A program made the translations under genes and the position numbers. From Eledone cirrhosa (lineage: Eukaryota): a stretch of 64,000 nt of DNA. Under the pieces are notes generated by a model, which ran no database searches, was not told where the DNA came from, and saw nothing but the letters and a program-made list of their open reading frames with translations. Of this stretch, positions 1-57,092 are shown piece after piece (position 1 is the first letter of the stretch; each line of letters starts with the position of its first letter). The stretch covers positions 18,228,001 through 18,292,000 of the forward strand of contig OZ024742.1 in NCBI GenBank assembly GCA_964016885.1, in the 5' to 3' direction.

Positions 1-788
1 GTTATTTACCATGCGGCCCTCAGTTCCTACCCCCCCTCTCTATGCACTTATTTACGGCTTACTACCCTGTCTTTAACCTAATTCATTCAATCTGAAAATA
101 TTGAAGAGATAAGACACTTTCCCATTCTTCTCTGCTAAAATGTACCACTAGAGCTGATTCCAATTTTCCCAGCCAGCCATCCATCTAATCTACGAAGGTA
201 TTTTAGCCTACATATTGTCGTTAATATTATGATGTTCCCTGCTGTATTAGCGTTAAATTTTCCCTGCTGTATTAGCGATAAATTTTCGAGGGTTTCTCTT
301 AGTAGCTTTTTTCATGACGTTATTATTGTTAATTTTACTGATGTAGTATTAACTTGGATATTTACCATGCGGTATTCTAATCCTATTGTATCTCTCTCAG
401 TTATTTACCATGCGGCCCTCAGTTCCTACCCCCCCCCTCTCTATGCACTTCTTTAAGGCTTACTACCCTGTCTTTAACCTAATTCATTCAATCTGAAAAT
501 ATTGAAGAGATAAGACACTTTCCCATTCTTCTCTGCTAAAATGTACCACTAGAGCTGATTCCAATTTTCCCAGCCAGCCATCCATCTAATCTACGAAGGT
601 ATTTTAGCCTACATATTGTCGTTAATATTATGATGTTCCCTGCTGTATTAGCGTTAAATTTTCCCTGCTGTATTAGCGATAAATTTTCGAGGGTTTCTCT
701 TAGTAGCTTTTTTCATGACGTTATTATTGTTAATTTTACTGATGTAGTATTAACTTGGATATTTACCATGCGACCCTCAGTTCCTACC
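1..788. repeat. ~400-bp direct tandem duplication (2 copies, first may be cut by the window edge) immediately 5' of an RTE ORF
   Basis: 1-399 recurs from 400 almost base for base (ORFs at 229 and 630 share their first 48 aa; offset 399-401 because of a poly-C length change). The second copy runs on into the RTE 5' region. Confidence 0.9.
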
Positions 789-789
789 T

Positions 790-3700
790 CACAATTTCCC
801 TCCCCCCACCCCCACACACCACCATAGTCTATTCGACCAATCAAACCTAGCATGCCATTTCCACTGCTGCTGCTGCTACTACCTGCCTAACTAACTCTCT
901 CCTCCTCTGGCGCATCCCAACACACCCTGCCATTACCCCACCACCACTGTCCTTCTAGCCCTCAATTTTCCCACCGTTATGGATGGATGAGCTGGGAATA
1001 CACGAGCAACTCTGAATCAATAGATGAAATATGAATCTGCGAGCTACCAAGCACCCACGTGAAGCGCCAACCCAGAGACCCTCCCCTACGAGTGTCGACA
1101 AATGCCCAAAACTCCGAGTTGGTACCATCAATGTAGGCTCAATGAAAGGAAGAGCAGGAGAAATCGTAGAAATGCTAGAGCGAAAGGAAGTTGATGTATG
1201 CTGTGTGCAAGAGACTAGATGGAGAGGAGGGTCTGCTAGAGTCCTTGTAGGAAAAAGCCAGTGCTACAAATTTTTCTGGGTGGGAAATGACGATGGGATG
1301 GGTGGTGTAGGTATACTATTAGCTGACAAGTGGGTAGATAAAGTAATCTCAGTGTACAGGGTAAATGCAAGAATCATTAAACTCAGACTAGTCCTGAATA
1401 AGACAATTACCACAATAATATCAGCTTACGCACCCCAATCGGGGCTGCCAGACGAACTTAAGGATAGGTTTTACGAGTCCCTAATACACACTACTGCTCT
1501 AACAGACGACAAGGACTTCCTAATCATTGCAGGAGATTTTAACGGACACGTAGGTAAACACTGCGACGGCTTCAATAGAGTACATGGAGGCCATGGAGTT
1601 GGCACAAGGAATGAGGAAGGATTCAGACTTCTAGAATTCTGCGACGCCAATGACATGTCGATATGTAACACAAACTTTAAAAAACCCGACAACCACCTGA
1701 TCACCTATAGATCAGGGGAGCACTCTAGTCAGTTAGATTTTATCCTCATCAGAGGACGTGACAGATGGACGGTCGTAAACACAAAAGCCTTCCCTAGTGA
1801 GGAATGTACATCCCAACATAGCTTAGTTGTCAGCGACCTCACGGTCAGAACTAGACGAGCCCTGAAACAGAGGCCAACCTGGAGAAGAAAGATCTGGAAG
1901 CTGAAAGTCCCCTCAACCAGTAACAGATTTAAAGATATTCTACTCAACGCCTATGACAGTAAAGAAGAACAGATAGAGACATTCAATGTAGAAGAGCACT
2001 GGGAGTTCCTAAAAAATAACTTACTAAAAGCGACGGACGAGATCTGTGGTTGGAGCAAGTCCACAGGGAGGAGGAGAGTGACTTTGTGGTGGAACAATAA
2101 GGTAGATGAGGCAGTTAAAGATTAGAGACAGGCATGAAAAGAATGGAAGAACGGGTGAAGCAGGGTACATTACATAGAGACCAGGAGGGAAGCTAGGCGA
2201 CAAGTATACTTAGCTAGAAGAGAAGCAGAGGATAGAAAATTCAAGCATGTTTTACAACGTGAGGACCAGAAACAGGAGGTATTCAATATTGCGAGGCAGT
2301 GTGTCAGAGATAGTTGTGATGTCATTGGAGAGAAGTGTATCCGGAATGATAAAGGTGAGCTTGCCCTCACAAGTGCTGAGAAGAAAGATGCATGGAAGAG
2401 TCATTATGATAGATTACTAAATGAGGAGAATGCATGGGAAGAAGAGACCCTACCCCACGTAGACCCTATAGAGGGACCAGCAGTACAAGTCAGCGGCAGC
2501 GTAGTAAGTAAGGCAATCAGAGATATGAAGATAGGGAAGGCAACCGGTCCATCGGGTATAGCTGCCGAGATGCTGAAGGCATCTGGGTCTGTAGGTCACA
2601 CTATAACCACACGTATCGTTAACCAGGTAATACTAGAGGGGGCCATACCAAAAGATTGGTGCAGTAGCATCATTGTCAACTGCTACAAAGGTAAAGGCGA
2701 TGCACTAGATAGAGGAAACTATAGAGGTATAAAGTTGATGGACCAGGTCATGAAAGTAACAGAAAGAGTTATAGCACAGCTGATTAGGGACCGGGTGAAT
2801 ATAGACGAGATGCAATTTGGGTTTGTACCAGGGAAAGGCACCACTGATGCGCTCTTCCTTGTGAGGCAATTACAGGAAAAGTACCTAGCTAAAAGTAAGC
2901 CACTCTACTTGGCATTTGTCGACCTTGAGAAAGCCTTTGACAGAGTTCCACGTGCAGTAATCTGGTGGGCTCTTAGAAAACTAGGAGTAGATGAATGGCT
3001 TGTGAAAGCGGTACAAGCCATGTATAGGGGAGCAGTCAGCAAAGTTAGGATTGGCAATGAGTATAGCGAGGAATTTAGCGTACAGGTTGGGGTCCACCAG
3101 GGCTCTGTTCTTAGCCCTCTCCTGTTCATCATAGTCCTGCAGGCAATAACGGAGGAGTTTAAGACCGGATGCCCATGGGAACTCCTGTATGCTGATGACC
3201 TCGCACTCATAGCTGAATCTATGGTAGAACTAGAGAATAAATTCCAAACCTGGAAGCAGGGACTAGAGAGAAAGGGCCTCAAAGTCAACATGACAAAGAC
3301 TAAGGTCCTTATAAGTAGACGAGAAAACAGAACCCAGATCCCCTCAGGGAAATGGCCTTGCTCAGTATGTAGGAAAGGTGTAGGTAGGAACTCCATTCTT
3401 TGCCCCAAATGCAAACAATGGGTACACAAGAGATGTAGCGGGATCTCAGGAAGCTTAATTAAGAATGTAGGATTCACATGCAGCAGCTGTGCTGAAACAG
3501 CAAGCAAACAGCCACAGGAAACAAGTACCACCAATCTCTGGGAGGGCCCTGTAGAAACAGTAGACAGCTTCTGCTACCTAGGTGACCGAATTAGCAACGG
3601 AGGTGGGTGCTCAGAAAGTACAATAACTAGGGTAAGAACGGGATGGAAGAAGTTTAGGGAACTACTACCACTGCTAGCTGCAAAAGGCTTCTCCCTCAGA

Positions 3701-4455
3701 ATGAAAGGCAGACTGTATGATGCGTGTATCCGAACAGCGATGTTGCATGGTAGTGAGACCTGGGCGCTGAAGGTGGAAGACCTACGTAGATTAGAGAGAA
3801 ACGAAGCCTGCATGCTCCGATGGATGTGTAACAGTAATATACGTGAATGACAAAGCATAAATGAATTGAGAGAGAGACTGAGCATAAGAGGAATCAAATG
3901 CTGCGTGCAGGAGAGGCGGTTACGCTGGTATGGACATGTGATGCGTATGAAGGATGACAGCTGCATAAAAAGGTGCAGAGCACTAGAAGTTGATGGAAAC
4001 CGCGGAGTGGGGAGACCCAAGATGACTTGGGATGAGGTGATAAAAGCCGACCTTACCCAACTACACCTCTCAAAGTCAATGACACACGACCGTGACTTCT
4101 GGCGTCACGCAGTAATACAGGGTACCCGACCTCCCATGGGTACATGCTGAAGCATATAAACAATATGCCCCCCCCCCCCCCACCGCAAGGTGGTCGTGGA
4201 GGTGCCACGGCAAAAAAGCACCCAGCCCACACTGTAAAGTGGACGTGTAGGCGCCACGAAAAAGCACCCAGCACTCACTGTAAATGAGGTTGGTGTTAGG
4301 AAGGGCATCCAGCTGTAGAAATCAAGCCAGATCAGTTCCTGTATGAGCAAGGCATGGTCAGCCGACCAGACACTGCCCACAACAGGACAACCCGTCTAAC
4401 CCATGCTAGCGTGGAAGAACGGACGTAAAACGGTGATGATGATGATGATGATGAT
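790..4455 (+). mobile_element. Near full-length RTE-clade LINE (APE + RT with PHD-like insert), inactivated by in-frame stops
   Basis: One reading frame 1031-4150: APE motifs (TINVGS, QETRW, GDFNGHVG), RT motifs (QFGF, DLEKAFD, GVHQGSVLSP, YADD, YLG), C-terminal [12 protein letters not shown]. Stops at 2123, 2135, 2156 and 3848. 3' UTR ends in (GAT)n. Confidence 0.95.
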
Positions 4456-6740
<2,285 letters not shown>

Positions 6741-8977
6741 AAGAGTAAGAGTCGTACAATATAGAGGAACAGTGAGAATTCCTGAAAGCTAACCTGCTGA
6801 AGGCGACAGATGAAACCTGTGGCTGGAGCAGGCCTATAGGCAGGGGGAGAGTAACTTGGTGGTGGAACAGTGAGGTGGAGAGGGCAATCAAGTCCAAAAA
6901 GCAGGCTTGGAAAGCATGGCGGGATGGGGGAAGTAGAGAAGACTATCAAGTGGCCAGGAGGGAAGCTAGGAGACAAGTGTACTTCGCAAGAAGGGAAGCA
7001 GAGGAAAGAAAGTTCAAGCATGTTCTACAACGCGAGGACCAAAAACGTGAGGTGTTCAGGATTGCTAGGCAATGTGTCAACGAAAACTGATATTGTCGTG
7101 GAGAAGTGTGTCCTAAATGATGATGGTGTACTTGCCATCACTGACGCTGATAAGAAGGTAGCTTGGAAGTGTCACTACGAAAGGCTACTAAATGAGGAGA
7201 ATAATTGGGAGAAAGACAGTCTCCCCCACATCGACCCGATAGAGGGACCAGCAGTGCAAGTTGAAGGTAGTATAATAAGTAAGGCGATCAAAGACATGAA
7301 GATGGACAAGGCGGCCGGGCCTTCGGAAATAGTTGCCGAAATGCTGAAAGCATCTGGAACGGTGGGACACACTATGGTCACCCGGATAGTAAACCAAGTC
7401 ATACAGAATGGGGTCGTTCCGAAGGACTGGCGCAGCAGCATCATCATTAACTGCTACAAGGGTAAAGGTGATGGCCTAGATAGGGGAAACTATAGAGGCA
7501 TTAAATTAATTGACCAGGTCATGAAGGTCACAGAAAAAGTAATAGCACAACTAATCAGAGAGCGAATTGATCTAGACAAAATGCAGTTCGGGTTTGTGTC
7601 AGGTAAAAGTACAACAGACGCTCTTTTCATTGTACGACAACTACAGGAGAAGTACCTAGCTAAAAGTAAACCCCTATACTTAGCTTTTGTTGACTTGGAG
7701 AAAGCCTTTGACAGAGTACCCCGCTTGATTATCTGGTGGGCCCTTAGAAAACTAGGTGTTGATGAATGGCTTGTGAGAGCTATACAAGCCATGTATAAAG
7801 AAACAGTCAGCAAGGTTAGAATTAACAACGAATATAGTGAAGAGTTTAGCGTAAAAGTTGGTGTTCATCAGGGCTCCGTCCTTAGCCCCCTACTATTTAT
7901 TATTGCCCTTCAGGCTATAACAGAGGAGTTCAAGACCGGCTGCCCATGGGAACTCCTATATGCAGATGATTTAACGCTCATAGCTGAATCAATGGCTGAA
8001 CTAGAGAAGAAATTCCAAACATGGAAGCATGGCCTAGAATCAAAAGGCCTTAAAGTTGACTTGTCTAAGACTAAAGTTCTAGTTTGTAGGAAGGAAAATA
8101 GGGCACCGGTCCCATCTGGGAAATGGCTATGCTCAGTGTGTAGGAAAGGAGTAGATAGAAACTCCATTTTATGTCCCAAATGCAAAGTATGGGTAGGATG
8201 TAGTGGGATCACAGGTAAGCTAACTAAGAATATAGATTTTATATGTGGCCGGTGCTCTGGTGCAATAAGTAGCAGCAAGTGCCCACAGAATACTAACTCA
8301 TTCCATTGCACAGATGGTTCTATAGAAATAGTGGACAGCTTCCGTTACCTGGGTGATAAAATCAGCAGTGGGGGAGGGTGCTCTGAAAGTACAGTAGCTA
8401 GAGTCAGAACGGGATGGAAAAAGTTCAGAGAGCTTATACCACTATTGGCCGCTAAAGGGTTCTCTCTAAAAATGAAAGGCAGGCTGTATGATGCCTGCAT
8501 ACGAACAGCAATGTTACATGGCAGTGAGACCTGGGCATTGTGTGCAGAGGATATACGCAGACTGGAGAGAAACGAAGCTTGCATGCTCCGCTGGATGTAT
8601 AATAGTAATATACGTGAACGGCAAAGCATAAACGAACTAAGGGAGAAATTAGAAATAAGAGGGATCAGATGTTGTTTACTCGAGAGAAGACTACGTTGGT
8701 ATGGTCACGTGATGCGCATGAAAGACGACAGCTGTATAAAAAAGTGCAGGGCAATAAAAATAGACGGTAGCCACGGAGTAGGCAGACCCAGAAAAACCTG
8801 GGACGACTTGATAAATTCCGACCTCACACACTTACACCTCTCCAAGACAATGTCACTGGACCGAGATCTTTGGCGCTACACAGTAATAGAGAAGACCCGC
8901 CTTACCTAAGTGCAAAGTGAAACCTACTACAGTCAGTAGGCACCTCTAACAAAATAATGAAGATGATGATGATGATG
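6741..8977 (+). mobile_element. 5'-truncated RTE LINE (third subfamily): linker + RT + PHD-like insert
   Basis: ORF 6875-7090 joins the frame of ORF 6870-8909 through a frameshift near 7085; [26 protein letters not shown]; short (GAT)n tail. Confidence 0.93.
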
Positions 8978-10053
8978 AGTGAGAGAAAGAGTTTAACCCT
9001 TTCATGACTACATATCTAATGAAATAGACTTTACTTCAATTAAATAATGAAGAATTTTGAAGGATTTACTAAAATTATTAATGATTTCATTACTGAGATA
9101 GTAACTTAATGTAAGGTTCTCATATAAATTTATGTTGGAATCCTTTAAAATGTGTAGTTTCATTTTATAGAACCAGAAATGGTTTTGGTAAGTAAAGGTT
9201 TAAACCTAAGGAGCAGTCAATACAGCAAATATTGTCCTATAAAAGCCATTGAAGGAAGCCTCAACATAATTATTTCACCTGCTAGAAATAGCAACCAAGT
9301 TTCCTTTAATGTTAAAAACTGTGAAACAAAACATGCGTGTATGTGTATGGATGGGAATATCAGGTATAGTGTTGGCGAATTTTGGGAAGCATGGAAGTTT
9401 TGAAGGATGCAGTGTCCCAGCAGCTAACAACCAAATAAGCAATTTTGTATCATAAAACCAGGGAAGTTTCAGGTGGTTTGGTATTAAAAGGGTTAAACAG
9501 TTCTAACTAAATATTTATTTAATTTATATAATATTGTAACTGAAAGAATTGATTGGTTTTTAAAAAGTAACAAATATCTATCGATTAAATTGACACCAGT
9601 GCATGACTGGTATTTTATTTTATCAACACTGTAAGGATGAAAGGCAAAGCCAATCTCTGCAAGATAAGGAATTACACTAATATTTTTCATTTTTGGAGAC
9701 AACATGGTCAAACTGTTTAGATGTTTACTTCCCAATTATTAGGACCTGAGTTCAATCCCATTACGTACCATCTTGAGAAAGTGTGATTTACCATAGTCTC
9801 AGGTTGATCCATGCCTTGTGAGTGAAATTTAGTAGACAGAAACTGTGCGGAAGTCTGTTAAATGAGCTGTGCCTGTAATTTAAAGATCCAGCCCTTGTCA
9901 TATTGAATCTCTGAGACTTATGATGAGGCTGCTTGTGTCTGTGGAATGCTCAGCCTCTTACACAGTAATTTCAGAGGCTGTTCCATTGATTGAACAACTG
10001 GAACATTCATTGTCAAACCTGATAGGGGTCCATTCTAATATTTTCCCTTTTAA

Positions 10054-10264
10054 CCCTTTAATGTTCAAAACCGGCCAGAATTCTCTACCTCTTTCTGTTG
10101 AAACTGGCTGTAACTGGTCACTCAAACTGATTTTAAGGTATTGTTCTCAAAATAAATACTTTCAAAATCTCATAAATTCGGTATTATGTGAGATAATTAT
10201 GTGAGGTAAAGCCTTTACCATGAAAATATAATAGTATATATAGAGTAATGTGAATGCTAAAGGG
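10054..10264. mobile_element. TTAA-flanked piggyBac-like MITE; related copies at 21690-21949, 30659-30871, 41043-41263, 48237-48457
   Basis: TTAA|CCCTTTA...TAAAGGG|TTAA ends and a shared ~215-bp body in five copies. Confidence 0.8.
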
Positions 10265-10326
10265 TTAAATGACAATATTAGCAACAAATCACAGATATTT
10301 ATTGAACACATAAAATATTGCCTTAC

Positions 10327-10430
10327 CTTTATAGGATCTGAATTTAAGGCTTCAGCTTCTGCTAAGAAGTTTTTCTTGGTATCTTTTGACCACCAGGTTC
10401 TCATATTACCATTATCATCAAACTGTGACC
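10327..10430 (-). CDS. M13-like gene exon (GSQFDDNGNMRTWWSKDTKKNF...PIK)
   Basis: aag|GG...AAG|gtaagg, phase 1-0; matches neprilysin GRxFDxxGNLxxWW. Confidence 0.92.
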
Positions 10431-13400
10431 CTTTAAGGAAATATGAAAAAGAAAAAAGAAGTAGTTTAATAATTATTTCTATCAAAACTGAAAATATTAA
10501 TATTCTCATCTGAGGTCTCAAATAGAAACCTAAGCTAGATAGATTTTATTTGGTGACATGACAAAAAGCACCCAGCCCTCACTGTAGATATGGTTGGCAT
10601 TAGAAAGGGCATCCAACCATAGAAACCAAGCTAGAAACATTGTGTGTGAGCAAAACACAGTCACCTGACCCAACTTGCCTCAAACGGGACAAATCATCTA
10701 ACCCATGTAAGCGTGGAAAAATGGACATTAAACAGTGATGATGATGATTAAACAAGATAGACATATGGTTATAAATGTTAAGTATTTCTCTGGTGGAGAA
10801 TGCACCACATAAAATAAACTGGTGATTAGGGATTTCAGAGTATGCTCCTGATACATAGACAAATAAAAGACAGTTTGGGGAAGGAGGAGATGATGGAAGT
10901 TTAAAGAACAGAAAACAATCTTGGGTTTATATATGTACTGAGACAGTTGACAAGGTGGAGGAAGAATTGTAATCCTGTAACATTGAGGACAACTGGAAAC
11001 TCCTATGAGACTACCTATTGAGGACTACAGATGAGATTTTGGCTGGATGGAAGTTGGGAAGTCTGATATGCTGAGGATTTAGCCCTCATAGCTGAAACTG
11101 CAGAAGAATTAAAAAAGTTCTAGACATGGAGTCAGATGAATTCACAGACACACACACACACACACATAAGCAAACAAAACATATGGCTCAGACAAATTTA
11201 GCAAAGATTAAAGTTTCAGTAAGTAGAATAGAGAATTCTGCTACCACCAGGGAAATGGTTATGATCAATATACAGAAAAAGAATAAGTGAAACCTTCCTA
11301 TGACATATCCAGTGTGTACAGTGTGTGTACAAGAGGTGTAGTAGGATTGTAGCTAGGTTGATAGAGAAGGTAAACTTCATATATAACAGGTATATAGAAG
11401 TAGTCAGCAGTAAAAAAAATATCCCTCATATACTTAGAAGGTTCATTAGACCAACAGCAGGAGTTAAACTCAGAATGCAGACACATGGAACAAGTCTTTA
11501 ATGCTCTACCAACTCTGCTAAATCAAACACATTTCTATAGAATATATACACAGATCAAAATGATAAAATACCTTGCAGATCTAAGGAATGGATATAGGCA
11601 TGCCCAACCACAGATCCTAAAGCTCCAAATTGCATTGCTCTAAAAAATAAAATAAAATAAATCTTATCTTACCTTTTTGTTTTAACATATTTAATAAGAT
11701 TGCTGGTTCAATATTGTTTTATGAAGGAAATATATACTAGTCTGTGTCATCATGTCTTACTTCACTAAACTGTTAACAAGTAATATTTGTGGATTATATA
11801 CCCTTGCAAGCAGGGAAAAGCGGACGTAAAATGGTGATGATGATGACATACTCATATATATGTATATTACATATAGAGGTAGAACACTGGAAGGTAATAT
11901 CTGTAGTGGTAGAGCACTCAGTCTATGGGACGAGTTTGGTAGAAGTAGTAACCCAACAGTTAGTTCACTATACCGAGAACAATCCGAGCTGGAGATCCGC
12001 ATAAGGTGAAACAATTGTTCTTCGTATGGTGAACTAACTGTTGTGTTACTACGTCTATATATATATATATATCAATATTGCTAACAAAAGTTTATTGGAC
12101 CGTATGACACAACCAATAATACACCTTACTATATAACTGTATATATTTATATATATATATATATATATGGTGCATGTATGTATATATATATACATACTGT
12201 ACATCTGTATACATATATGTATGTACGTATACATACTTATATTTAAGTAACAGCCGTACTAAGAGTGGGAAATGAAATTTCGTTTCATTTTTTCCGTTTA
12301 TCATTTTCGGTGCACCCGGCCGATTAACCCACTCGATATGAAAATTGGGCTACTCAGCCGTTAATATGCATAAGGAAAGTATATACTTTCAGACGTTCAA
12401 TCATCTGGCAGGAAGGTATACGTTGCTGACGATAGCTAATAAGCTTGAAACTAGAACAGCGTTCCTTTGTCAGTGTTGAACAAACGAGCAACGGTGGTTG
12501 CTAGATACTACGGATTAATACGGGATGTTTGTTTACAAACACACTGAGCATTATAATAAATGTTCGGTGAATCCATACGTACATATATATATGTGTGCAT
12601 GTATGTATATATATATACATACTACTGTACGTCTGTATACATATATGTATGTACGTATACATACTTATATATATATATATATATTTATATATTCAACCTT
12701 TCTGTATCTATTGTTGTGGTATATATTTGGCCACCGCCTTTGGTCATTTTTCTTGGTGCCACAATTTTTAACTGTTGTGTTTACTGGATGATAATGTATT
12801 AACTTATCACTCCATTGAGTGCTTTGTGATTGCCTCAAACTAATCGAATAGTACATGGTGTACGGCAGCTACAACTTCGGTTTATACTTAATATATATAT
12901 ATATAATAATGATAATAATAATAATAATGAAATTATTGTGTAAAGTGCTCAGGTGCACTACAACTCGTCAAAGGTGCATGTATAGTACATAGAATAATAC
13001 ACAAATGTCAGGGAAGTGAATAGTGTATGAGTCATGATATACATGTGTGTATGTGTATGTGTATGGAGGGGGAACATTAGGTGTAATGTTGGCGAATCTC
13101 GGGAAGCATGGAGGCCTTAAAGGATGCAGTGTCTCCACAGCTAACAACTGATGCAGGTAGTTTGTTCCATGCTTCAGCAACTCTGAGCATGAAAAAATGT
13201 TTCCGAAAGTCATGGGAACTGTACTGTTTTCATATATATATATATATATACATATGTAGATTCCAAGTTAAATCGGGGTTAACCATAGTAAATAAGGTAT
13301 TCAATACATTAGTAGAGTGTGAACATAATTATTTAATATAGAAATGGCTTCTACAGGACTAGAACTGTGTCATTCATATGAAATAATCAGGAATACTCTG

Positions 13401-13850: not shown

Positions 13851-16800
13851 GGAGGAGGTTATAGTTCACTTGAAGCATTGTGTAATGAGGTATAAACGTT
13901 TGTATATGTACCATTTCCTGTCAGCATGACTTGGCAAGTTATTTAGAACACTGGTTTAACCGCTTTACTTCCCTCCGAAGAAGAGATATTATCTCGAAAA
14001 TTAAGGACATTTAAATAAATCTAAGGTAAAAGACTAATTGTCAACAATATCTTTTGCATTTGCATTCTTTATTCTATGTCCATACCTGCATTGTTTTGGC
14101 TTTATTATACATATACAAACGTTTATATATATATAACACTGACAATGATAAGGATGATTGAGAAAATACTTACAAAGGTAGGTCATCATGGAAAAGTGGT
14201 TGTTGGAACATGACTGCTGGGATATCTATTGGAAATAAATATTTATATAAACATGTATTTTTCTTATTTCATAAAAAAATTAATATACTTTGAAAGTGTA
14301 TTTTAAAAATTGGTGTGATTCCTTCATCATTTTTACATCAACTTTTCTATGTTGGCATGGGTTTGATGAGATATTTTAGGGCAATGTTTTACAGCCAGAT
14401 GCCCTTTCTGACACTGATCCTCTTGGTCACTTCTTAAGACATGCAGACTCTATTCTGTCCACATGGGCTGTGGGACGGCCAGCGTATGGGCCCCCATTTG
14501 CTCATGTTAGTGAGAGATGGGGAGATCAGGAGAGATGGAAGCAGTGACAGTGGAAGTTTGGATCTGGTCTATATGTCATCATCATCATCATCACCGTTTT
14601 ACATCCGTTCTTCTACGCTAGCATGGATTAGATGGGTTGTCCTGTTGTGGGCAGTGTCTGGTCGGCTGACCTTGTCTTGTTCATACAGGAACTGATTCTG
14701 ACTTGATTTCTACAGCTGGATGCCCTTCCTAACACCAACCTCATTTACAGTGTGGGCTGGGTGCTTTTTTTCCATGGCACTCCACGACCACTTTGCAGTG
14801 GGAGGGGGTGGGGTATATTGTCTATATGCTTCAGCTTATATATATATATATATATATATATAAACAATACCCTGTTAGAAAATAGAGCTATTCAGGATAA
14901 AAACTCAACAGATACTAGACAAGACAGCAATGTGTATATTTGTTTATTGCACCACATATATATACTCCATCTATGGTAAATGTTTAAGCTTACTAAATAA
15001 TTCAGAATTTCACCCCACCGGCCAAAAGAAAAAAAGAAACTGTACCAATAACAACTCACAAATAGAATTCTGCTCTGGTGTGTAGAAAGCTTTTATTTCA
15101 AATGGATGGGCATTCAAAGACCATCTAAATAAAGTCAAGAGAAATTATTTCAACAAAGTATTTCACAGCTGCAATAGTAATAAAATTACTTTCACAGAAT
15201 TTGAAACTATATTATAAAGTTTTATTTCCCCATAATTGTGTGTGCTCTAGCATGGCCATAGACCTTTCACTGGAACAGGTTAAATGGTATATATTCTCAA
15301 TGTATTACTCCTGCCAGATTAATCATGTAGGCTTATTAACATAAAACCTATTACACACAGGGTTGGAAGGGCAGGGGTCACTTCATGTTTGGATGATCCC
15401 TCATACACAAAAAATTAGAAAACACAGCAAAGCCCCCAAGTTTACATATCAAAGTTAGCTAGGCACAAGTAATTCGAATTGAAAAGTTATACATACAGAT
15501 ATTAAATTAAAAAATTCTAACCATCCTAAAACCAAAAAGCCCAGCTGAGAGCACAAATAAATTTCCCACTTTGCGCCCCACATTATACCCCATTAAATGA
15601 GCAAGACACTTTATTTCACATTGCTCCAGTTTACTCAGCTGTAGAAATGAGATGATAGGGACTGGGGTCCATATCATTCCCCTGCAAAGTGGTCATGGAG
15701 GTGCCACGGCTAAAAAGCACCCAGCACTCACTGTAAATGAGGTTGGTGTTAGGAAGGGCATCCAGCTGTAGAAATCAAGCCAGAATCAGTTCCCGTCCCA
15801 CCCTTGCAAGCAGGGAAAAAGCGGACGTAAAATGAAATGAAATGATGATGAAATCCAGCCCTGACTGTGACAATACTGCAAATGTGTTGGCTTGCCTAAA
15901 AAATCATTAGATGCAAACTCCAGCACCCCTTGATATGGTATGTGACTGACTGTGCATATCTTCTCCCACATTTTATAAATATATAAATTGTGTTTATGGG
16001 CATGTGGTTAGAATGTCTCAGAAAAGAATTGCTGGACAGATTTTATGGGCAAAGCCAGCCAGCAGGAGACCCAGGAGTAGACCACAAACAAGATGGTTGG
16101 ATAACATTCATGAACTTGGCTGGTTATGCTTGGGAATCCAGCTAGATCAGTTGGAAATGGTTGTTTCTGATGGGACCCACTGGAAGGAGTGTTTGAGGAT
16201 TCAGGAAGAAGTGTTTATTTGTATCTTCATTTATAAAATATTGAAAATTTACTGCAATATTGTATGTATGGAGCTGTAAATCCTGGTGGAGTCATGTAAG
16301 TGCCACAGTGACATATGTGTCTTGGACATTTTAAACTCAGTGGCACCCATCCCTCTTCAGGTCTGAAAACAGCTGATTTCTTCTAGCAAAGGAGAGAGAG
16401 AGAGAGAGAGAGAGAGGGAAAGTGATAAAGAGATATAGAGTACAGGACTGGTACTTTTTCATCAATCTCGATAAGTTAAAAGGCAAAGTTGACCTCACTG
16501 AGATTTGAACTCAGAATACATAGAGCCGGAACAAATACCACAAGGCATTATATTAATAAAGATATAGTGAAATTAATGACAACATTTGAATTTATACAGA
16601 TATTGGATATTACTTACTTTCCCCTTGAATTGGTTTGCCTGAGTTTACTGAATGTCCGTACTAATTTATATCTGTCAATCGTGAACAAGTTACTCATGAA
16701 GTTTTCATTGAACTGAAACTAAAATTAAAAGAACATTTATTTAGAGTGAGACAGTTTACATAGAAGGAAGATGCAGTAGAGGAAGACCACGAAAAACATT

Positions 16801-17547: not shown

Positions 17548-20500
17548 CACACACAAACGGATGTGTAATAGTAATATACATGAATGGGAAAGCGTAAATG
17601 AACTGAGAGAGAAATTAGGCATAAGAGGGATCAGATGCAGTTTACTAGAGAGGAAATTGCATTGGTATGGTCATGTAATGTGTATGAAGGATAACAGCTG
17701 TATAAAAAGGTGCAGGGTGATCAAAGTTGATGGAAGCTATGGAGTAAGAAGACCTGGGATGAGGTGATAAAAGCTGATCTTGCGCAATTTCACCTCTCAA
17801 AGACAATGGCACAGGATCGAGATCTTTGGTGTTATGCAGTAATACAGAAGACATGATCACCTGACCCAACTTGCCTCTAATGGGACAACCCATCTACCCC
17901 ATGCTAGTATAGAAAATGCATGTTAAACGATGATGATATTTATATATACATTACCTGTTCTATAAAGGGATCAGCACTAAGGGTATCGTCGCTACCAATC
18001 ATCTGTAACATACTGTATAGCTGTAAAAAGATACATATCACAGTTATATTAACTTTATTTTAAATAACATAAGAATCAATGGGCTGGTCGGAAATTCTTA
18101 GAAAATGTAGAAATCCCAAATTCACATAATAGCTTAAAAATCTATTGCATCAGAATTACTTCAATCCAGGAGCTTTTCATTCCTATTGGAGGAACCTCTC
18201 CCTGGTTGATCTCCACCACCTTCTGTTTGGTTTTAGTCATGTCAGGGGTGTAGCCCTACTCACCATGCTTGTAGGTTGGTGAGGCTATATAACCCATATT
18301 TGGGGTGGAAGGTCGTTGACTCTGAGGACTTCATCCACCCTTTTAACAGCTCTTTTTTTGTGTTGCTGGGATTCCACTTATCCTTCTCACCAGACCAGGG
18401 TCTGGTGAGGGAACCTCAACCATGAAGCAAGTTGTACTGGTTTACATGTTACCGGTAGCAGGCAGAAGCCTGACCTTATTTCTCATCTCATGCTTTAGAC
18501 TCTCTCTCTTCTTTTCTTTCCCACTCTCCGTTTGATATGGGGTTATATCTTAACCCGACCTTTTATTCCACATATAGTATCCAGCTCTTTATGTCTACCC
18601 TTCACACTGACAATATTACAATTTTATCAATATTCATATACACTCATCACTTTAAACCTTTTCCATTAACATTTACACACTTATATTTAATAGAGTACAA
18701 CATGTTACCTTTTTCAGACCTTCCCACTTTGTGATTTGATCCATCCAACAAATGTGGGAAACCATGTTTATGACAGCTGCGTGGATCATCTTTGGGACAT
18801 GGATGTTCTAAGGAAGCAAAAAATCACATTTATGATATCAACTTCCTACATTATTAAAATATGTAAATCAACATCATCATCATCATCACCACCACCACCA
18901 CCATCGTCGTTGTCATCATTATCATCATCATCATCATCATCATCACCATCATCTCTACCACCGCCACCACCACTGCCATCATCTAATTCATCATCATTAT
19001 CATCATTGTTAAACATCTATCTTCCTTCTAGCAAGTGTTAGATGGGTCATCACAGTCCAAGTCAGTACTCAAGCAGAGGTAGTGACCTGCCAGATGGGCC
19101 AGGAGCCAACAACTTGCTTACATACATTCCTGCCCTCTATTAAGTGCATTTGATCATAGCAGCAGCACAAAGGAGGTTTTCATATTTTTAACAAAGTTGA
19201 ACAATCCTCCTGTATATGAAAACTAGTTTTGTGTTATAGTGTTGGTTGCTTAACAGTATAAATTGGCATTTTACCAAAGTTAAGTTTTACTCTTATCCAA
19301 TTGATAGAATTTAAATAATATAATTATCATCATCACCATTTAACGTCCATTTTTCCATGCTGGCAGATCCTGTTGTGAGCTATGCTAGGTCAGATGACTA
19401 TGTCATGCTCACACAGAACCAATTTTGACTTGGTTTCTACAGCTGGATGTCGTAAAACCCAAGCCATAATGAAAATTATCGTGTACAGTATTTAGGTGCA
19501 CTAAAACTCATCAAAGGTGCATGTGTAGTACATGCAAGTTCGCTTCATGGACCAGGCAATGTGTTATGTCCTTGAGCAAAACATTTTATTTCATGCTGTA
19601 TTTTCTGCCAGGAGTTGTAACTGATAGATAGTATCAGCAATGGAAACATCATTTCCTTGGTCCGATTTTACGAGTTCCACCCCACTGAGTAAGTGAATGA
19701 GGTTTGGGATCTTCTCAATCAATTCAATCAACTATAAATTATAGTTGAAAAAAAACCCCCAAAAAACAAAAAGACAGGTAAAATACACCTGGAGACAGAA
19801 AAAAGTGGTGCCCCAGCATAGCCTCAGTCCCTTGGTTGGAATGCAAATAAATAAGAGGCACCTACAAGGAACTGAACCTGCCCCTTTCATTTCTTACCTT
19901 ATATTTATCAGCATCTGAGAAATATCTTCTGGCATAGATTTTACTGATAACACTTGGCATTAAATTACCAACAAAGAGGACACAGCTGAGGGGTCTGTTG
20001 GCAGTACCTATACCACTGGTTATCTGTAATAAATAGAGACATGACTTGTGACAGCTTCATAAAAATAATGGTTTCTACTTTTGGCACAAGGCCAGCAATT
20101 ACCCCAGTCTATTACTGGTACTTTATTTTATTGACCCCTTAAGGATGAAAAGCAAAGTTAACCTCAGCGAGATTTGAACTCAGAATGGCAAGGCCCGTAA
20201 CTCTATGCATCAAAGCATGGGGAACATCAAGATAAGAAACTATCAGTTCAAATTCCAGGAGACCACCATTTATAAGTGTGACCAGTTCCTGTCATGGGAA
20301 GTTATAATGTGGTATAAGCGAGATAAATCCTTACCTATGAAAGAACAGTAGAAACGTAAGTCTGAATATCACATATGTCTTCAGAATTGTACTTTGTATA
20401 TATAAAATATATATATAATAAAAAATATAGGATAATAATAAATTTACTTACATGTTTGTAATTTTGGTACATATTATAGAACGGGCTGGGCATAGCATCG

Positions 20501-26500: not shown

Positions 26501-29500
26501 TCATCTATTTCTGAAATTTCTGTGTATTCCACAGTTTCTACAAAGCCATGTTTGTGTTTATTATATGTTTTTATGACCCTGATCAATAAATATTCCTCCA
26601 TCACTTGTTTTCTGGTCAAAAAGTGGTGTGTGTTATACATGAATGTGCACAATACATGAAATTATATGGTGCTAGAGTTTCTTGTCTCTAGAAACTTACA
26701 TGTAAGATATTGTTTGAAACATTTTTCTGGTCTTTTACAACTCCAATTGGTAATAAATAGTTACTATAAAGTGGTATAAGTTCTGTTACTAATCGATTCA
26801 AATCAGGTTTTTTAGAATTAGGTTGATTGCTTCGTGCTATACTTGTTAATGCTGACAATGTTCGTTGGATGAATAACAGGCTTGGTTTTCCATAATTTTC
26901 TGTAATATAGAAAAATATATTCTTTGTATTTGCCAAAATAAGTTTTTATTAAAATTCAATCCAATTCATGGCTTTCTCAATCCTATTGGAGGACTCGCTC
27001 CCTAGTTGACCAACACCCCCTATTTTGGTTTTGGTCATGTCATGGGTATAGCCGTACTCACCATGCTTGGTGTGTTGGTGAGGCTATTTAACTTATAGTT
27101 GGGGTGGATGGCCATTGACTCTGAGGAGTTTATCCACCCTTTTTAACAGCTCTTAATTTTTGTATTGCTGCTGGGGTTCCACTTATCCTCCTCACCTGAC
27201 AAGGGTTATATGGGGTAGCTGGTTTAGTCCCCGACCACTTGACCATGAAGCAGGTTGTACTGGATTACATGGTACCAGTAGCAGGCAGAAGTCTGAGCTG
27301 ACATTTCACATACAACTATCTCACTTACCTGAGTACACACAAGACTTGTATAAGGTTTTTGCATTTTTTTCTGCTTTTGAATCATATTGTAGGGGTTCCT
27401 TCATTAGCAAATCTGGAAATATAGAAATTATTTATGTAAATGTTTGATGGAATGGTCCTCCATCGATTTCAGTGATGATTGTTACAGTTGTTTGATCAAT
27501 GGAACATCATGAAATTAACATGTAAGTGGCTGAACATTTCACAGACACATAATTCTCAGGGAGATTCAGCATGACAAAGTGTGTGACCAGAGCAAGACTT
27601 TCATCTGTTGAAGCCCTAAGCTATGAGATGTTAGACACAGAATTCAAAACAGTGTCAAGGGTTGTTGTTGGAAAGATGGTTAATAATCTTGTGGGTGTCT
27701 ACCAAGTCAGATGATGAAACGCATTCCATGGGTGTTTTTATTTGTAATTGCTCACATGAGTCTTGTATGTCAGAAGTTTTTTTTTCACTGCCAGACTACC
27801 ATAGAATCTACTACACCTTTTGTGCATCCATAGTTTACATATAACACAATGTATGAAATTCTTACTGATTCCATTTCTGTTAATATCATCATTGTTATGT
27901 GTTTTTTAAAATTATTTTGTATGGTGGTTGGCATTAGGAAGAGCATCCATCCACCCATAGAAAGCATGCGAAATATGGAATGTATGAAGAGAATGGTTGA
28001 ATTGATCCACCAGGTCTTGGATGACTACAACCCATCCAACCTATGCCAGCATGGAAAGAGGATGCAAAAATAATGATGATAATGATGATGATGATCATCA
28101 TGATGATTAGGAATTCTTTTGCTAATTATTCCATTAGCATGTCATCATCATCATCATCGTTTAACATCCATTTTTCCACACTAGCAAGGTATGAACATAT
28201 CTGTAAAAATGTATCAGTATTTATGAAATGTACCAATAAAATAAAACAAACAAACAAAAAAACCCTATGTACCTTTGATGTCACTTTTTATCTGATCTGT
28301 GAGGACCACACCAGAAATTCCTAGATGGACAGGAGGAGAAGTAGTTGTTTGTTTCCAGTTTCCACAAATATATTGATAGAAGTCATCACAAGGAGCTGTA
28401 TTTTCATCAATTGAGGATTTGAAAGATTTTACTTTGATAAAAAGAAAAAAAAAGTACAAAATTGTGATTCCAGTATTTATTGTAAAGCAAGTTATTTTGC
28501 ATGATTTCTGATTTCTATTATTTAGTGAATAATACACTTTATTTGCTGATCTGAAGTTGGATTCCAACTTAACCCCAAAGTCCTCCATGTCTTAACTTTA
28601 GATGCTTTTACTGCAGTTTTTCATGCCTGCTTGTGCTGCAAGTGCGAGAAGGGGGACTTATTTCCAAGCCAAGATTTGTAAGGCTCCTTCTTTTCAGATG
28701 GCATTTTTGACCTCTTGAATGAACCAAGGAGTTTTCCTGCCATTTGGTGCCACACCATGCCTCTTTCGCCTACAGCATTTAACAGTATTAAGAGTTAAAA
28801 TAGACATTTAGCAATGTGAAAATTTAAATGTTGGTGTCATGATAATATGCACCCAGTACACCCTGTAAAGTTGTAAACCATTGACTGGAGGTCTTTAGCC
28901 TTGTCAAGAACATGACAGTTTCTTTAGTGTTGATGTCATAATAAAATACATAAAATAGAATCTATAAAATGGCTAGTATGAAGAAGGACATCCAGCAGTA
29001 GAAACCATGCCAAAAATTGGGACATACATGTGAGATGTAGATTCCTATCACCACAACCTGGCTAGGAAGGTAGCATAGAAAGTGAATGTAAAATGATGAT
29101 ATTGTTGTTGTTAATACTGATGATGATGGGGATGATGATAACGATGATCATGATGAGGATCTTGATGATAATGATGATGATGATGTATTAGTTTCAATAA
29201 AATCCCACAAGAAATCAATCTGCCTTACCAACTATTAGGCATTCATCTTCCAAACATTCATTCTTCAATGGTACATTTGTAATGTGAGTTGAAGATGTTG
29301 CAGTTGTTCCACTGAAGTCTGTAAAAGATGTTATATTAGTTGTAGTTTGAAGTAGTGACGTTGTTGCTGCTTCACTAAAGTTTTGGTGGTATTTGGTTTT
29401 ATTTGTAGTTTGAGAAATATTTAAATATGTTTTCAAGACGCTCAAAGAATGGTTTCGAATCTTAGTGATATTCAGATCATAATTGTGATCTTCTACAGTA

Positions 29501-32500
29501 GATGTAGCGTCATAAGGCGTAGAAGTTTCTCTATCAAAGATGGAATTAGTATAATTAAGAATAGATTCAGTGGTAAAAACTGAGCTTGAAATAGAAGCAA
29601 ATGTTGAATTTTCATAAATGGAATCAGAGCTTTCGTTCAATGTTTTGCCAGAGCTTTTGGATATATTTAAAATTGCTGTTAGGTTTAAATCTTGAGAAGG
29701 GATATGAATCCTGTCTGTTCTTCCTTGGTGAGAAATGTTTCTGTTTCCTTCTGTGGTACCAAGAACAAATGGTGTTGTTATAGTTGTAGAACTTTTGTAA
29801 GTATTATTGGTGATAGGAGTAGGTATAGTATTAGAAGGAATTTGTTCTGTTGATTCAGGTGAAAAATGGGGAGTTGTTTGGTGGACTGAAGTAAGTTTAA
29901 ATATAGAAGTGATGAGGGAGAGAGAAGTTGTAAATTTGTGAGGAGAAACATATGGAGTGGGAAAAAGTGTAGAAGTTGCAGTAGTAGTAGTAGTAGTAGG
30001 AACAGTAACTCTAGAGATAGGAATAGTGGTAGTAATAGTAGTGGGAGTAGTAGTGTGAGTAGTAGTAGGGATTGGAGTAGTTGTAGTAGTAGTACTCATA
30101 GATGAAGGAGAAACTGGACGTTTCTGTAAAGATGGTGTTGTAAAAGGGAAGAGTAATCGCTGAGATTGTGTTGGTATGAATGTAGTTGATGTGGAAGATG
30201 GTCTTTTGTTAGGTTCCTGTGGAGGAAATTTCCTATTATGTATTGTGTTTCCTGGATTTCCTTCTTCAAATATAGGAATTTTATGTGTAGTTCTTAATAA
30301 GTTTTCTGTTGTGGTTTTAATTATTGGGAATTCAACATCATCCCATAAAGGATATTTAGAGTTCCATCGATTCTGGAAACGAGCATTCATTATCAAATTT
30401 CTTGACTCCTCATAGAATGAATCGGGGTCTTCAAGATGTTTCTTTTTCTCTGTGGGAAATATAATAACATAACTTTAATTTGATGGCAACCAAACTTCAT
30501 TTCTATAAAACATTTACTGTAAAAATCTAGATTTTTCTGACATATTTTTATGTGAAACAATGAATACGGTAGATCACCTTAAGAAAATGTTCATTATCAA
30601 AAACAAAAGCAAAAAAGGACATTCTAAAGTATGAATAAGTGATAATCCATTACATTAACCCTTTAGCATTTAAACTGATCATATCCGGCCTGAGTTCTCT
30701 CACCTCTTTCTGTTCAAACCAGCCATAACTGGCCACTCATACCAGCATTAAGGTATTATTCTCAAAATAAATATCAAAATCTCATAGATTCGATATTATG
30801 TGAGATAATTATGTGGGATAGAACCTTTATTGTGAAAATACAATAGTAAATATAGAGTAAATACTAAAGGGTTAATCAGTGCAATAAGGGCCAGACTTTC
30901 CCTTGCTGAGGAACAAACCACCAGCATCAGTTGTTAGTTGTTGGGACACTGCATCCTTCAAAACTTCCATGCATCCCAAAATTCACCAACACTACACCTG
31001 ATATGCCTCCTCCATACACATGCATGCATGTGTGTGCGTGTGTCTGAGTATATATCATGACTCATACACTGTTCACTTTCCTGACATTTGTACATTATTC
31101 TATGTACTATACATGCACCTTTAATGAGTTGTAGTGAACCTGAGCATTGTACACAATAATTTTCATTATTTTCATTATTATTATTATTATTATTATAACT
31201 TATTATTATAAAGGCGGTGAATTGGCAGTATCGGTAGAGGGTCGGACAACATGCTTTCCAGCATAGTTACGTCCCTTTACGGTCTGAGTTCAAATCCCGT
31301 TGGGGTTAACTTTGCCTTTTATCCTTACGAGGTCGATAAAATAAAGTACCAGTAATACACTGGGATAATTGCTGGCCTTGTGCCAAAAGTAGAAACAATT
31401 ATTATAACTTACTTGCATCTGATTTTTCAGAAGAAATAGTTAATGAGAAAATAAGGGCACATAGTACTATACAACAAAAAACAACAGCCTGAATTGTACG
31501 TTTTTCTCTTTGTGATCTTGTTGCCCACCATCCATAATTTATGAATCTGTAAAAATAAAACAAAATATTTATGTGTAACTAATGAATTTATTGTTTATCT
31601 GAAGTACACAATAATGAAAGTTTTTTTTTTACAAAAAAGATTTAAGGAAGGAAAAAAAAGGGTGAGGAATGGGAAATGGGAATATTGGTGAATCTCTATA
31701 TTCTTGACAGGATTGGTGTGTATATCTCAGCTGAACTTCACAGAAAAGATGGTGTAACAGCCAGCATCAATCACTGTAACAGCCATTTCACCTCATAGGG
31801 CTTATATCTCAGGAGAAGGCAATTCTCATGATAAAATATTTTGTAATTCAAAATCAACTCAATAAAACCGTTTTGAAAAATAATTCAATTTTTTCACTTT
31901 TGATCATTTTTAATATATATATTAAAAAAAAAATCCCATGAAGCCTATAATTACCAAATTAAATTTTCTTGCATTTAAAAGTTGTGAAGTTATTCTCTGA
32001 ATTTGTCAAGTTCTATGTTTTTATTTTAACTCTTAAAGTCCTGTACCACATAAAACTACATTAGCAATACATTCTTGAGAAGTACAACACAGCACTATGA
32101 TTGTATCACATTAAAAATTAAAGTCTCTCCTCTTTAGCTCTGAATTTTCTCAATGATCTATCCACTAATAAAAAAAACTATAAATAAACATGTTTGTTAA
32201 CCCTTTCATGACTTCATATCTAATGAAATACACTATATTTTAATTAATTAATGAAGAATTTTGAAGGATTTACTAAAATTATTAATTATTCCATTACTAA
32301 GATAGTAACTTAATGTAAGGTTCTTATATAAAATTATGTTGAATGATTTTAATTTAAATTGAAAACCTTTAAAATAGGTGGTTTTATTACATAGTACCAG
32401 AGCCGGTTTTGGCTGAGTTGGTAACTAAAGGGTTAAATCAAATATTTTCTGCTAAATCATAAAAAGATGTTAAGAGTTATTCAGTAAATCTTTTGCTTGT

Positions 32501-55271: not shown

Positions 55272-57092
55272 CTAAATATAGACGGTGCTGCAAAATTTTT
55301 TGGGCCAGTGGACCCTACGACCTGAACGGGTCGTGGTCTTGTAACGTGGTGATGGTGGTGGTGTAGGGACAGGCGATGATGGTGGTTCAGGAACAGGCGT
55401 TCGCTCAACAGGCAAATACGAAGGGGTTCGTGGATCAGGAACCACAGCGTCCGTGTCAAGGTGTGCCTGCTTAAGCCTGTCTATTGTAACTGTCTCCCTG
55501 GACCCTTTAATATCTAAAGTGAAATGCTTAGCCAAGCGCGCTAAGACACGGTAAGGTCCAGTGTAAGGCTGTGTGAGCGGGGGCTTCACAGAATCTTTCC
55601 TTACAAAGACATGCGTCCACGAGGCAACATCCCTAGGGACAGCAGTCTTGACAGTTTGTTTCCTAGTGTCCATTGGCGGCAAATCCTGGAAATAGGAGCG
55701 CAAACGGGACACGTAGGAAGCGTGATCTTGGGCATCAAGATCGATAGGGGCAAGCATTTGCCCGGGCAACGTCAGAGGGGCACCGTACAGTACTTCGGCC
55801 GGTGAAAATCCAAAGTCGACCTTCACCGTTGCCCGAATCCCTTGTAGCACAATAGGGAGGTACTCGCTCCAATGCGCCGAGTCCATTGAGGCCATTAAGG
55901 AGGCCTTCAGTTGGCGGTGAAAACGCTCCACCATACCATTCGAAGCGGGATGGTACGCCGTAGTTCTGATGCATTTAGCACCAATTAATTTTGACAGTTC
56001 GAGGAAAAGGCTCGACTCGAACTGTCGTCCACGGTCGGTAGTTACTGTGGATGGAACTCCATAATGAGAGATCCATCCAGACACAAGAGCACGCACTGTT
56101 GTCTCAGCGGTGATGTTTTTCAAGGGGATGGCTTCAGGCCATCTCGAAAAACGGTCAATTATGGTCAGCAGATAAGAATACCCATCGCTGACAGGCCAAG
56201 GTCCCACTATATCAATATGAATGTGCGAAAAACGCGCATCTGGGTTAGTAAAGGTATCCAGGGGAGCCTTGACGTGTCGATGGACCTTTGATTTCTGGCA
56301 AGCGACGCAGGAACGGCACCAAGCAGCAATTTCACGCCTCATATTTGGCCAGAAAAATCTAGCTGATATGAGCTTTGCTGTGGCAGAAGATCCTGGATGC
56401 GAGAAACCATGTAATCCCAGAAACACGGTCAGATGATGATTCTCTGGAACGAAGGGCCTAGGCACGTCCAAAGAGACGTCGCAGAGAATTTGGCCAACTG
56501 CAGTCGACAGAGGCAAGAATTTCATCTCGCAATTCGCAAACTCGGGCGATGTAACATCCAATGACTCAAGGGGAGGCTGATCCGCAGCCAAACGAGTCAG
56601 ATCTATGTCAGAGGGTGACGAGATAGCTGTCATGGGTAAGCGGGACAAGGCATCGGCCGCTATATTTAGTGAACCCGGAATGTGTTGGATATTATTCGCA
56701 TATTGCGATATGAAATCAAGGTGTCTCGTCTCTCTGGGCGAGTATTTATCAGCCTTCGCTCTCAACGCAAAAGTCAATGGTTTATGGTCAGTGAGGATAG
56801 TAAATAGTCTACCCTCTAGCATATGTGAAAAATGTTTCACGGCCAAATAGATGGCCAAAAGCTCTCTTCCAAAGGTGCTGTCGTGCGTCTCAGCAGGTTT
56901 CAGCTTTCTGGAAAAAAACTCCAGCGGTTGCTGGTAACCATTGATGTTTTGCTGTAGCACTGCGCCCACAGCGATATCCGATGCATCAACACAAAGCATT
57001 AGCTTTGCACCAGGTACCGGGTGAGCCAGTAACGAAGCATTAGCCAAAGCAGTTTTGGCGTGCTGAAAATCAGCAAGTTGAGTGTCTGTCAA
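55272..57092 (-). CDS. pol: Gypsy pol: RNase H + integrase
   Basis: [30 protein letters not shown] (HGFSH..CVAC), [27 protein letters not shown]. Confidence 0.93.

Follow-up and report, generated by a model that had tools for sequence, protein, structure and literature searches.

The window, a stretch of 64,000 nucleotides (G000:C3:18228001-18292000 of a 3.0-Gb genome), carries on its minus strand a gene of the M13 (neprilysin) family in which the catalytic glutamate of the zinc helix is replaced by alanine, so that HAYIH stands in place of HExxH, and in which all three zinc ligands are preserved. According to protein-level tests, this gene is maintained by selection, and its product is best described as a pseudo-peptidase: a predicted membrane protein with a neprilysin-type domain at the end of a long stalk.

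Gene structure and protein layout

The gene comprises 22 coding exons in one open frame of 1105 amino acids, a candidate first exon included (Table 1). The exon model was obtained by tblastn, in which the Octopus vulgaris orthologue P0001 was searched against the window together with the 20 kb that lie past position 1, and the boundaries were set at AG/GT. In the 21 exons checked, all acceptors are AG (21/21) and all donors GT (20/20), and the sole stop codon lies at the end. Within the 52 kb scanned upstream, the candidate exon 1 gave the top BLOSUM match to the first nine residues of P0001 (31, the next being 23), and its phase fits exon 2. The initial annotation had described the HAYIH exon as having intact splice sites, together with an IKAFY motif upstream and AEAEAL in the following exon. 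All of this was borne out: exon 17 (68 nt) is preceded by an AG acceptor rich in pyrimidines and followed by a GT donor, the codons at 11602-11588 (-) read CAT GCC TAT ATC CAT, IKAFY was found at 15096, and AEAEAL lies within exon 10430-10327. The exon of the third zinc ligand, expected beyond position 1, was also recovered there; it reads LESSADIGG and retains the equivalents of Glu646 and Asp650 of neprilysin.

Table 1. Features of the HAYIH gene; positions refer to the window unless preceded by G000:C3
Feature	Position	Strand	Remarks
Exon 1, candidate only	33945..33970	-	ATG at 33970, MNVNFRPQ, donor GTTAGA
Exon 2	31413..31546	-	cytoplasmic tail, basic; one transmembrane helix predicted at about residues 29-47
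Exon 3	29229..30449	-	1221 nt; Ser/Thr/Pro-rich stalk, first M13-domain Cys pair at its end
Exons 4-6	28431-28273, 27412-27329, 26899-26700	-	start of Peptidase_M13_N
Exons 7-10	23853-23695, 22152-22075, 21473-21334, 20545-20452	-	M13_N region continued; AG/GT, open frame
Exons 11-14	20023-19898, 18807-18709, 18020-17955, 16718-16618	-	remainder of M13_N region; AG/GT, open frame
Exon 15	15060..15124	-	IKAFY; Asn542 equivalent is Lys907, codon AAA
Exon 16	14174..14225	-	PAGIL-equivalent strand altered to PAVMF
Exon 17	11572..11639	-	zinc helix HAYIH: His948, Ala949 (for Glu584), His952, Asp955; translation of 11639-11572: (R)AMQFGALGSVVGHAYIHSLDLQ(G)
Exon 18	10327..10430	-	AEAEAL, without Cys620 equivalent; next loop shorter than in relatives
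Intron 18	1..10326, runs on past the window	-	exons 19-22 beyond position 1
Exon 19	G000:C3:18221596-18221531	-	LESSAD, third zinc ligand
Exon 20	G000:C3:18217039-18216941	-	
Exon 21	G000:C3:18215310-18215234	-	His711 equivalent is Asn1067; Arg717 equivalent retained
Exon 22	G000:C3:18214576-18214477	-	end ATIW-stop

The encoded protein begins with a short basic tail, followed by one hydrophobic segment, a stalk of about 400 residues and the M13 domain, which starts at Cys452. Hydropathy reaches a peak of 2.7 in the exon 2 helix, and after residue 60 no other hydropathy window exceeds 1.9. The stalk contains 33.5% Ser+Thr and 13 N-glycosylation sequons, and pLDDT is below 50 over most of its length. 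A type II membrane topology is predicted, with a disordered and glycosylated stalk. Pfam recognised in P0001 both Peptidase_M13_N (205 bits, cut-off 32) and Peptidase_M13 (138.5 bits, cut-off 24.5). The exon 18709-18807 (-) contains an extra cysteine, Cys827, which is unpaired by sequence count and is His in the three Octopus species.

The window also contains several repeated elements. An LTR-retrotransposon-like element lies upstream of the gene at 55272-59308 (-), where different frames encode DUF7041, reverse transcriptase, RNase H and integrase. LINE-type elements with endonuclease and reverse transcriptase are inserted antisense within intron 18, at 1028-3850 (+) and 6855-8909 (+); in the first of them a PHD finger match follows the reverse transcriptase, and a similar PHD match occurs at 61982-62611 (-). 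A (TA)n/(TG)n microsatellite array at 5387-6788 generates several spurious open frames of more than 400 codons.

Reality of the HAYIH exon

The HAYIH exon is not a chance match, since tblastn of P0001 gave collinear minus-strand exons all along the locus and the residues encoded by exon 17 are identical in the two proteins (23/23). The phase in which exon 17 begins and the G|GT position at its end are shared by the zinc exons of paralogues at other places in the genome. Reads with GAA or GAG at the alanine codon had been named as the observation that would speak against the substitution. Contigs of runs X1-X3 cross this codon with 0 other letters; they derive from one sample of one study, possibly the assembly's own, and are unspliced and intron-spanning, hence DNA-like. 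Independent support is given by the same residue in three other species. An assembly error was rejected on these two grounds, the agreement of the X1-X3 contigs and the presence of HAYIH in three Octopus species. An alternative HExxH exon was likewise rejected, because the only two six-frame HE..H matches in the window, at 41329 and 52282, are both on the plus strand. A genome search for a second copy of the zinc exon yielded the exon itself and one weak paralogue match (E 4.6; two candidates scored, which sets a lower bound), and by this sequence search the HAYIH gene is single-copy in the genome.

Active site residues lost and retained

Residues were numbered by a HMMER alignment to the neprilysin chain 6suk_A with an offset of +50, and the numbering was checked on His583, Glu584, His587, Glu646 and Asn542 as given in PMC2259306; PMC12893245 served as source for the names of pocket residues only. 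Conservation was measured in 126 of the 149 other matches listed (the best 150 of 9809 HMMER matches); the 23 proteins longer than 930 amino acids, mostly tandem domain repeats, were left out. The 126 homologues are thus best-scoring matches and were not drawn at random from the family.

Among the losses, the general base Glu584 is Ala949, the transition-state His711 is Asn1067, the substrate-binding Asn542 is Lys907, and Asn647 is Ser. Among the 126 homologues from the best 150 of 9809 matches, Glu584 is found in 126, His711 in 124 and Asn542 in 121. Arg102 and Arg110 have no equivalents in the protein, and Ile558, Phe563 and Met579 have been substituted. These changes, together with that of Asn542, make the canonical mode of peptide binding doubtful. 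The zinc ligands His583, His587 and Glu646 are kept, the two histidines as the initial annotation had claimed, and so are Asp590, Asp650, Arg717, Val580 and Trp693. That annotation had overlooked further changes, namely His711 to Asn and ENIAD to ESSAD (zinc Glu kept), as well as the Ser/Thr stalk of about 400 amino acids.

The protein was then compared with the four motifs that characterise active neprilysins (PMC8223033). HExxH is replaced by HAYIH in 5/5 sequences from four species. NAY/FY is KAFY in the window protein and KALY in Octopus, and the C-terminal CxxW reads ATIW, TTLW or TILW. ENIAD(xGG) reads ESSADIGG, in which Glu646 and Asp650 are retained and Asn and Ile have become Ser. CxxW is also missing from P0013, P0038 and P0119, whose motifs are those of active enzymes, and from a paralogue of the same genome with the zinc motif HEFTH. 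By homology the protein belongs to M13, and the absence of three of the four motifs places it, as judged from its sequence, in the Nepl-type non-peptidase class.

Replacement of His711 by Asn and of Pro713 by Ser creates an Asn1067-Met-Ser sequon, present in 4/4 full-length sequences and in 0/126 homologues of the best 150 of 9809 matches. A glycan on this predicted sequon could block the cavity.

The E584V variant of neprilysin serves as an inactive control (PMC4954676), fly Nep4 E873Q is reported as inactive (PMC5140268), and PMC7822871 states the transition-state role of the histidine. Because single substitutions of the same glutamate inactivate neprilysin and Nep4, peptidase activity has very probably been lost in the HAYIH protein; by the same analogy with neprilysin biochemistry, zinc has probably been retained.

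A-to-I editing is widespread in coleoids. Rescue of the glutamate by this route was rejected, because GCC cannot become a Glu codon, nor AAT a His codon. A slow or altered hydrolase, with an intact zinc site and a base supplied by another residue or by the substrate, would account for the complete zinc triad, the conserved Arg717 and Asp650 and the fixation of new pocket residues. However, the general base and the transition-state histidine are both gone with no acidic replacement at the aligned positions, editing restores neither codon, and loss of the glutamate by itself kills the two enzymes cited above, so that we consider residual hydrolysis quite unlikely.

Loss of a cysteine pair

The initial annotation had also pointed to AEAEAL as lacking a conserved cysteine. 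The absence is real, the missing residue being Cys620, and Cys746 of the terminal CxxW is absent as well. The Cys620-Cys746 pair forms a disulfide. Its loss does not belong to the inactivation: the first cysteine is absent in 3/126 homologues from the best 150 of 9809 matches (P0013, P0038 and P0119), all of which also lack the second and have intact catalytic motifs, and the HEFTH gene of the same genome lacks both. As a sign of decay, the loss was rejected on the same grounds; we regard the loss of Cys620 as a trait of the clade or lineage, since active-motif relatives and the HEFTH paralogue have neither cysteine.

Predicted structure

An AlphaFold2 model of P0001, calculated from a 100-sequence alignment, has a mean pLDDT of 68 with 480 residues at or above 90; the domain is mostly above 90 and the stalk is of low confidence. 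The best Foldseek match was human neprilysin E584D (6sh1; TMt 0.86, E 9e-38), and the model thus predicts a neprilysin fold. The model is silent on the state of the pocket because its input alignment is made of active M13 enzymes.

Orthologues and maintenance

The orthologue P0001 was found by a search with the long exon 30447-29227, which matched one protein, and the others were members of its cluster. P0001-P0004 represent O. vulgaris (P0001), O. sinensis (two isoforms, for which RefSeq isoform models exist) and O. bimaculoides, and all have HAYIH. Accessions for the protein in Octopus are XP_014772660, XP_029643531 and CAI9731130. Between the window protein and the Octopus proteins, the M13 domain is 81-85% identical (about 17% diverged) and the stalk 57-58%.

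The window, O. vulgaris and O. bimaculoides proteins are identical at 95/102 family-conserved columns versus 307/401 variable columns (Fisher p 8e-5), conserved meaning at least 80% and variable less than 50% conserved among the homologues from the best 150 of 9809 matches. In a neutral simulation run to 82.5% identity, with substitutions only and along one lineage, the sequences acquired a mean of 7.1 stops, and one run in 1000 remained stop-free. The 115 real differences are conservative: their BLOSUM score averages +0.43, whereas the simulated mean was -0.37 and at most 0.10. In the window protein 33 of the 102 family-conserved columns are replaced, and P0013 keeps 87 of them. At 27 of these 33 replaced columns the same new residue occurs in all three species, which indicates that the pocket was rebuilt and then held.

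The long stem of the HAYIH group in the trees and the 33 replaced columns might suggest a decaying duplicate, as might the further M13 exon copies without the glutamate on contig C25 of this genome, which come from a multi-copy family whose members are nearly identical and of which one is broken. Nevertheless, the frame is open and its substitutions are shared by four species, neutral simulation is rejected and DNA contigs match the codon; a pseudogene or a sequence error is therefore highly improbable. New pocket residues fixed across species and a divergence far from neutral argue instead for a maintained pseudo-peptidase. The initial annotation had favoured the same reading, and the unbroken 22-exon frame, the shared substitutions and the non-neutral divergence at the protein level uphold it.

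Word-index searches for orthologues outside Octopus returned P0001 and distant M13 proteins only, and the same searches missed known cephalopod M13 paralogues. Among the HMMER matches listed (the best 150 of 9809) there was no second HAYIH-like representative, relatives more than 50% identical being hidden behind P0001. A search of the ESM Atlas confirmed M13 and gave nothing further.

Origin and paralogues

In a FastTree phylogeny (130 rows) and in IQ-TREE phylogenies of 22, 16 and 12 rows, which are subsets of one 40-row set, the HAYIH proteins join P0013 and, where included, the HEFTH gene. IQ-TREE support for this grouping was 100/98, 100/98 and 100/100, and 100/98 under both LG+G4 and a mixture model. 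The HEFTH gene and P0013 appeared as sisters with 98/91 and 84/80 (LG+G4), without resolution under the mixture model. Placements with the long outgroup or with canonical mollusc neprilysins were rejected (AU p 0.0025 and <1e-70), for groups picked after earlier trees. The stem branch of the HAYIH group is long, 1.35-1.42 changes per column (3.0 under the mixture model) versus about 0.1 per octopod tip, and the position in the tree therefore carries some risk of attraction. The shared cysteine loss and the exon boundaries agree with it.

The HEFTH gene (G000:C3:151.22-151.33 Mb; L045, L052-L065) and P0013 are nearest to the HAYIH proteins in the trees, share exon boundaries with them and likewise lack Cys620 and Cys746. 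In contrast to the HAYIH proteins they keep VNAFY, HExxH, GENIAD and His711, and P0013, a Logan record, has no long stalk. Their identity to the HAYIH domain is about 32-34%. In the HEFTH gene and in P0013 alike, the loop preceding GENIAD has gained two cysteines. The HAYIH gene likely originated by duplication of an active M13 gene devoid of Cys620 and Cys746, followed by fast remodelling and then by constraint.

Ten or more additional M13 loci or clusters are present in the genome, and their zinc exons read HEITH (four genes), HELTH, HEIMH, HELMH, HEFTH and HEIFH; given these HExxH-bearing loci, active M13 peptidases are not lacking in this genome. A near-identical multi-copy family (L015, L026, L028 and L046, at G000:C25: 7.17, 5.62, 25.34 and 7.54 Mb) has a zinc exon that reads HEIFH twice, HKIFH once and HQIFH once, and a last exon without the CxxW cysteine; in L028 the zinc motif is followed by a short deletion. 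It could be that Glu-less neprilysins arose here a second time, and recently, or that the copies are duplicates in decay. The M13 gene at L001, L024 and L030 (G000:C3:192.9-193.3 Mb, a span of about 400 kb) has HELMH, AENIAD and an end YGVW without the terminal cysteine, and resembles P0038. At L035 (G000:C24:7.63 Mb) a 705-amino-acid frame was considered as a second stalk and rejected: it is an intronic minisatellite tandem repeat, which lies directly behind the HELTH paralogue's first M13_N exon.

Possible function

For the function we give about an even chance to a non-cutting, membrane-anchored binding protein that captures its ligand in the remodelled zinc pocket. Such a protein would be displayed on the cell surface, unable to cut and probably still zinc-bound, and would bind something. 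An extracellular peptide or other ligand may be held in the zinc pocket at the tip of the long, predicted glycosylated stalk, and the ligand so bound could be protected, sequestered or presented, which is the weakest and an inferred step. What favours capture in the pocket is that the protein still has its full zinc triad and the Asp650-Arg717 pair, whereas zinc ligands have been lost in the fly proteins Gone early and Nepl15. Pocket use is, however, deduced from conservation, and since the zinc helices are also buried core, this conservation could be structural. For Nepl15, binding and sequestration of peptides is a proposal from modelling only (PMC7822871). The more specific idea of an octopod trap or receptor for neuropeptides or hormones, in which a zinc-loaded, silenced cage would sit on a mucin-like stalk with an N-glycan at the former His711 gating the cavity, seems unlikely.

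A dead enzyme could also act through its outer surface, in adhesion, as a scaffold, as a co-receptor in the manner of Gone early, or as a regulator of an active M13 paralogue, with the pocket sealed and any zinc structural. Gone early, the best-studied membrane pseudo-neprilysin, acts on EGFR signalling and has lost its zinc motifs, as described in PMC4242634, and with PMC11266112 it supplies a precedent. The long mucin-like stalk with its predicted membrane anchor fits such a role, as the stalk suits cell-to-cell reach, and so do the disappearance of Asn542 and of the S2' arginines (Arg102/Arg110 equivalents), the sequon newly formed and conserved in place of His711, and the good conservation of surface and variable columns as well (73-79% identical in three species). 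On the other hand, Gone early and Nepl15 are described as having lost zinc ligands, whereas the HAYIH protein has all three along with Asp590, Asp650 and Arg717, and its zinc exon matches that of O. vulgaris at all 23 residues. An outer-surface role thus remains a tentative alternative, of appreciable but lesser weight than ligand capture by the pocket. A role in venom was rejected, because the available text of PMC12607849 reports neprilysin-like transcripts of octopus glands by BLAST label alone, with no tie to the HAYIH gene.

Comparison with known M13 proteins

With neprilysin, MMEL1 and ECE (MEROPS M13; PF05649 and PF01431) the HAYIH protein shares both Pfam domains, the predicted fold, the type II layout and H583, H587, E646, D590, D650 and R717; its C-terminal intron positions are shared with an active M13 paralogue. 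Unlike neprilysin, it has Ala for Glu584, Asn for His711, Lys for Asn542 and ESSAD for ENIAD, lacks the Cys620-Cys746 pair and bears the stalk of about 400 amino acids.

Non-catalytic members of the family are an established class. PMC8223033 counts 21 non-peptidases among the 28 Drosophila M13 genes, and PMC2259306 lists thirty M13 sequences, rat Kell among them, whose active site or structure is altered. Drosophila Nepl proteins such as Nepl15 resemble the HAYIH protein in their M13 fold, in the loss of the equivalents of the general base, His711 and Asn542, in the retained Arg717/Asp650 pair and in the long conservation of the changed site (PMC8223033, PMC7822871). Nepl15 differs in having lost two zinc ligands and in being secreted, while the HAYIH protein keeps three ligands and is predicted to be membrane-bound on a long stalk. 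In the Nepl set secretion is predicted for 18 of 21 proteins, and some Nepl may keep the triad, the motif-by-motif table of PMC8223033 standing outside this comparison. The fly M13 expansions are Drosophila-specific (PMC2259306), whereas the HAYIH gene occurs as a single copy and clusters in the trees with an active-motif paralogue from the same genome; the two are likened by function class and not by descent.

Gone early is likewise a type II membrane M13 non-peptidase of the cell surface (PMC4242634, PMC11266112), but according to these descriptions, on which the comparison is based, EAxxD and Val replace its HExxH and third ligand, so that it has no zinc site. Rat Kell is a membrane M13 protein in which Glu584 is replaced, by Lys; it has also lost Glu646 and is a vertebrate protein of separate origin (PMC2259306). 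Our search of the literature on cephalopod and mollusc neprilysins, which covered few subscription journals and no supplements, found no published description of an octopod HAYIH protein, and in the available text of three octopus papers (PMC12919962, PMC12607849, PMC6522055) neprilysin appears as an annotation only. On the sequence evidence, the HAYIH protein is an independent octopod variant of the known non-catalytic neprilysins, distinguished by its kept zinc triad and long stalk.

The octopus orthologues bear the database name 'membrane metallo-endopeptidase-like 1', with the inactive motif not marked; the present analysis corrects this label, under which the protein would pass for an active enzyme in three Octopus proteomes. 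Most known non-catalytic neprilysins come from flies, and that they bind peptides is described as a proposal still open (PMC8223033, PMC7822871). A conserved, single-copy form with the whole zinc triad would come close to a natural substrate-trap mutant, which makes the idea of peptide sequestration directly testable, with the active sister paralogue as control. It also indicates that pseudo-enzymes of the M13 family arose independently in molluscs.
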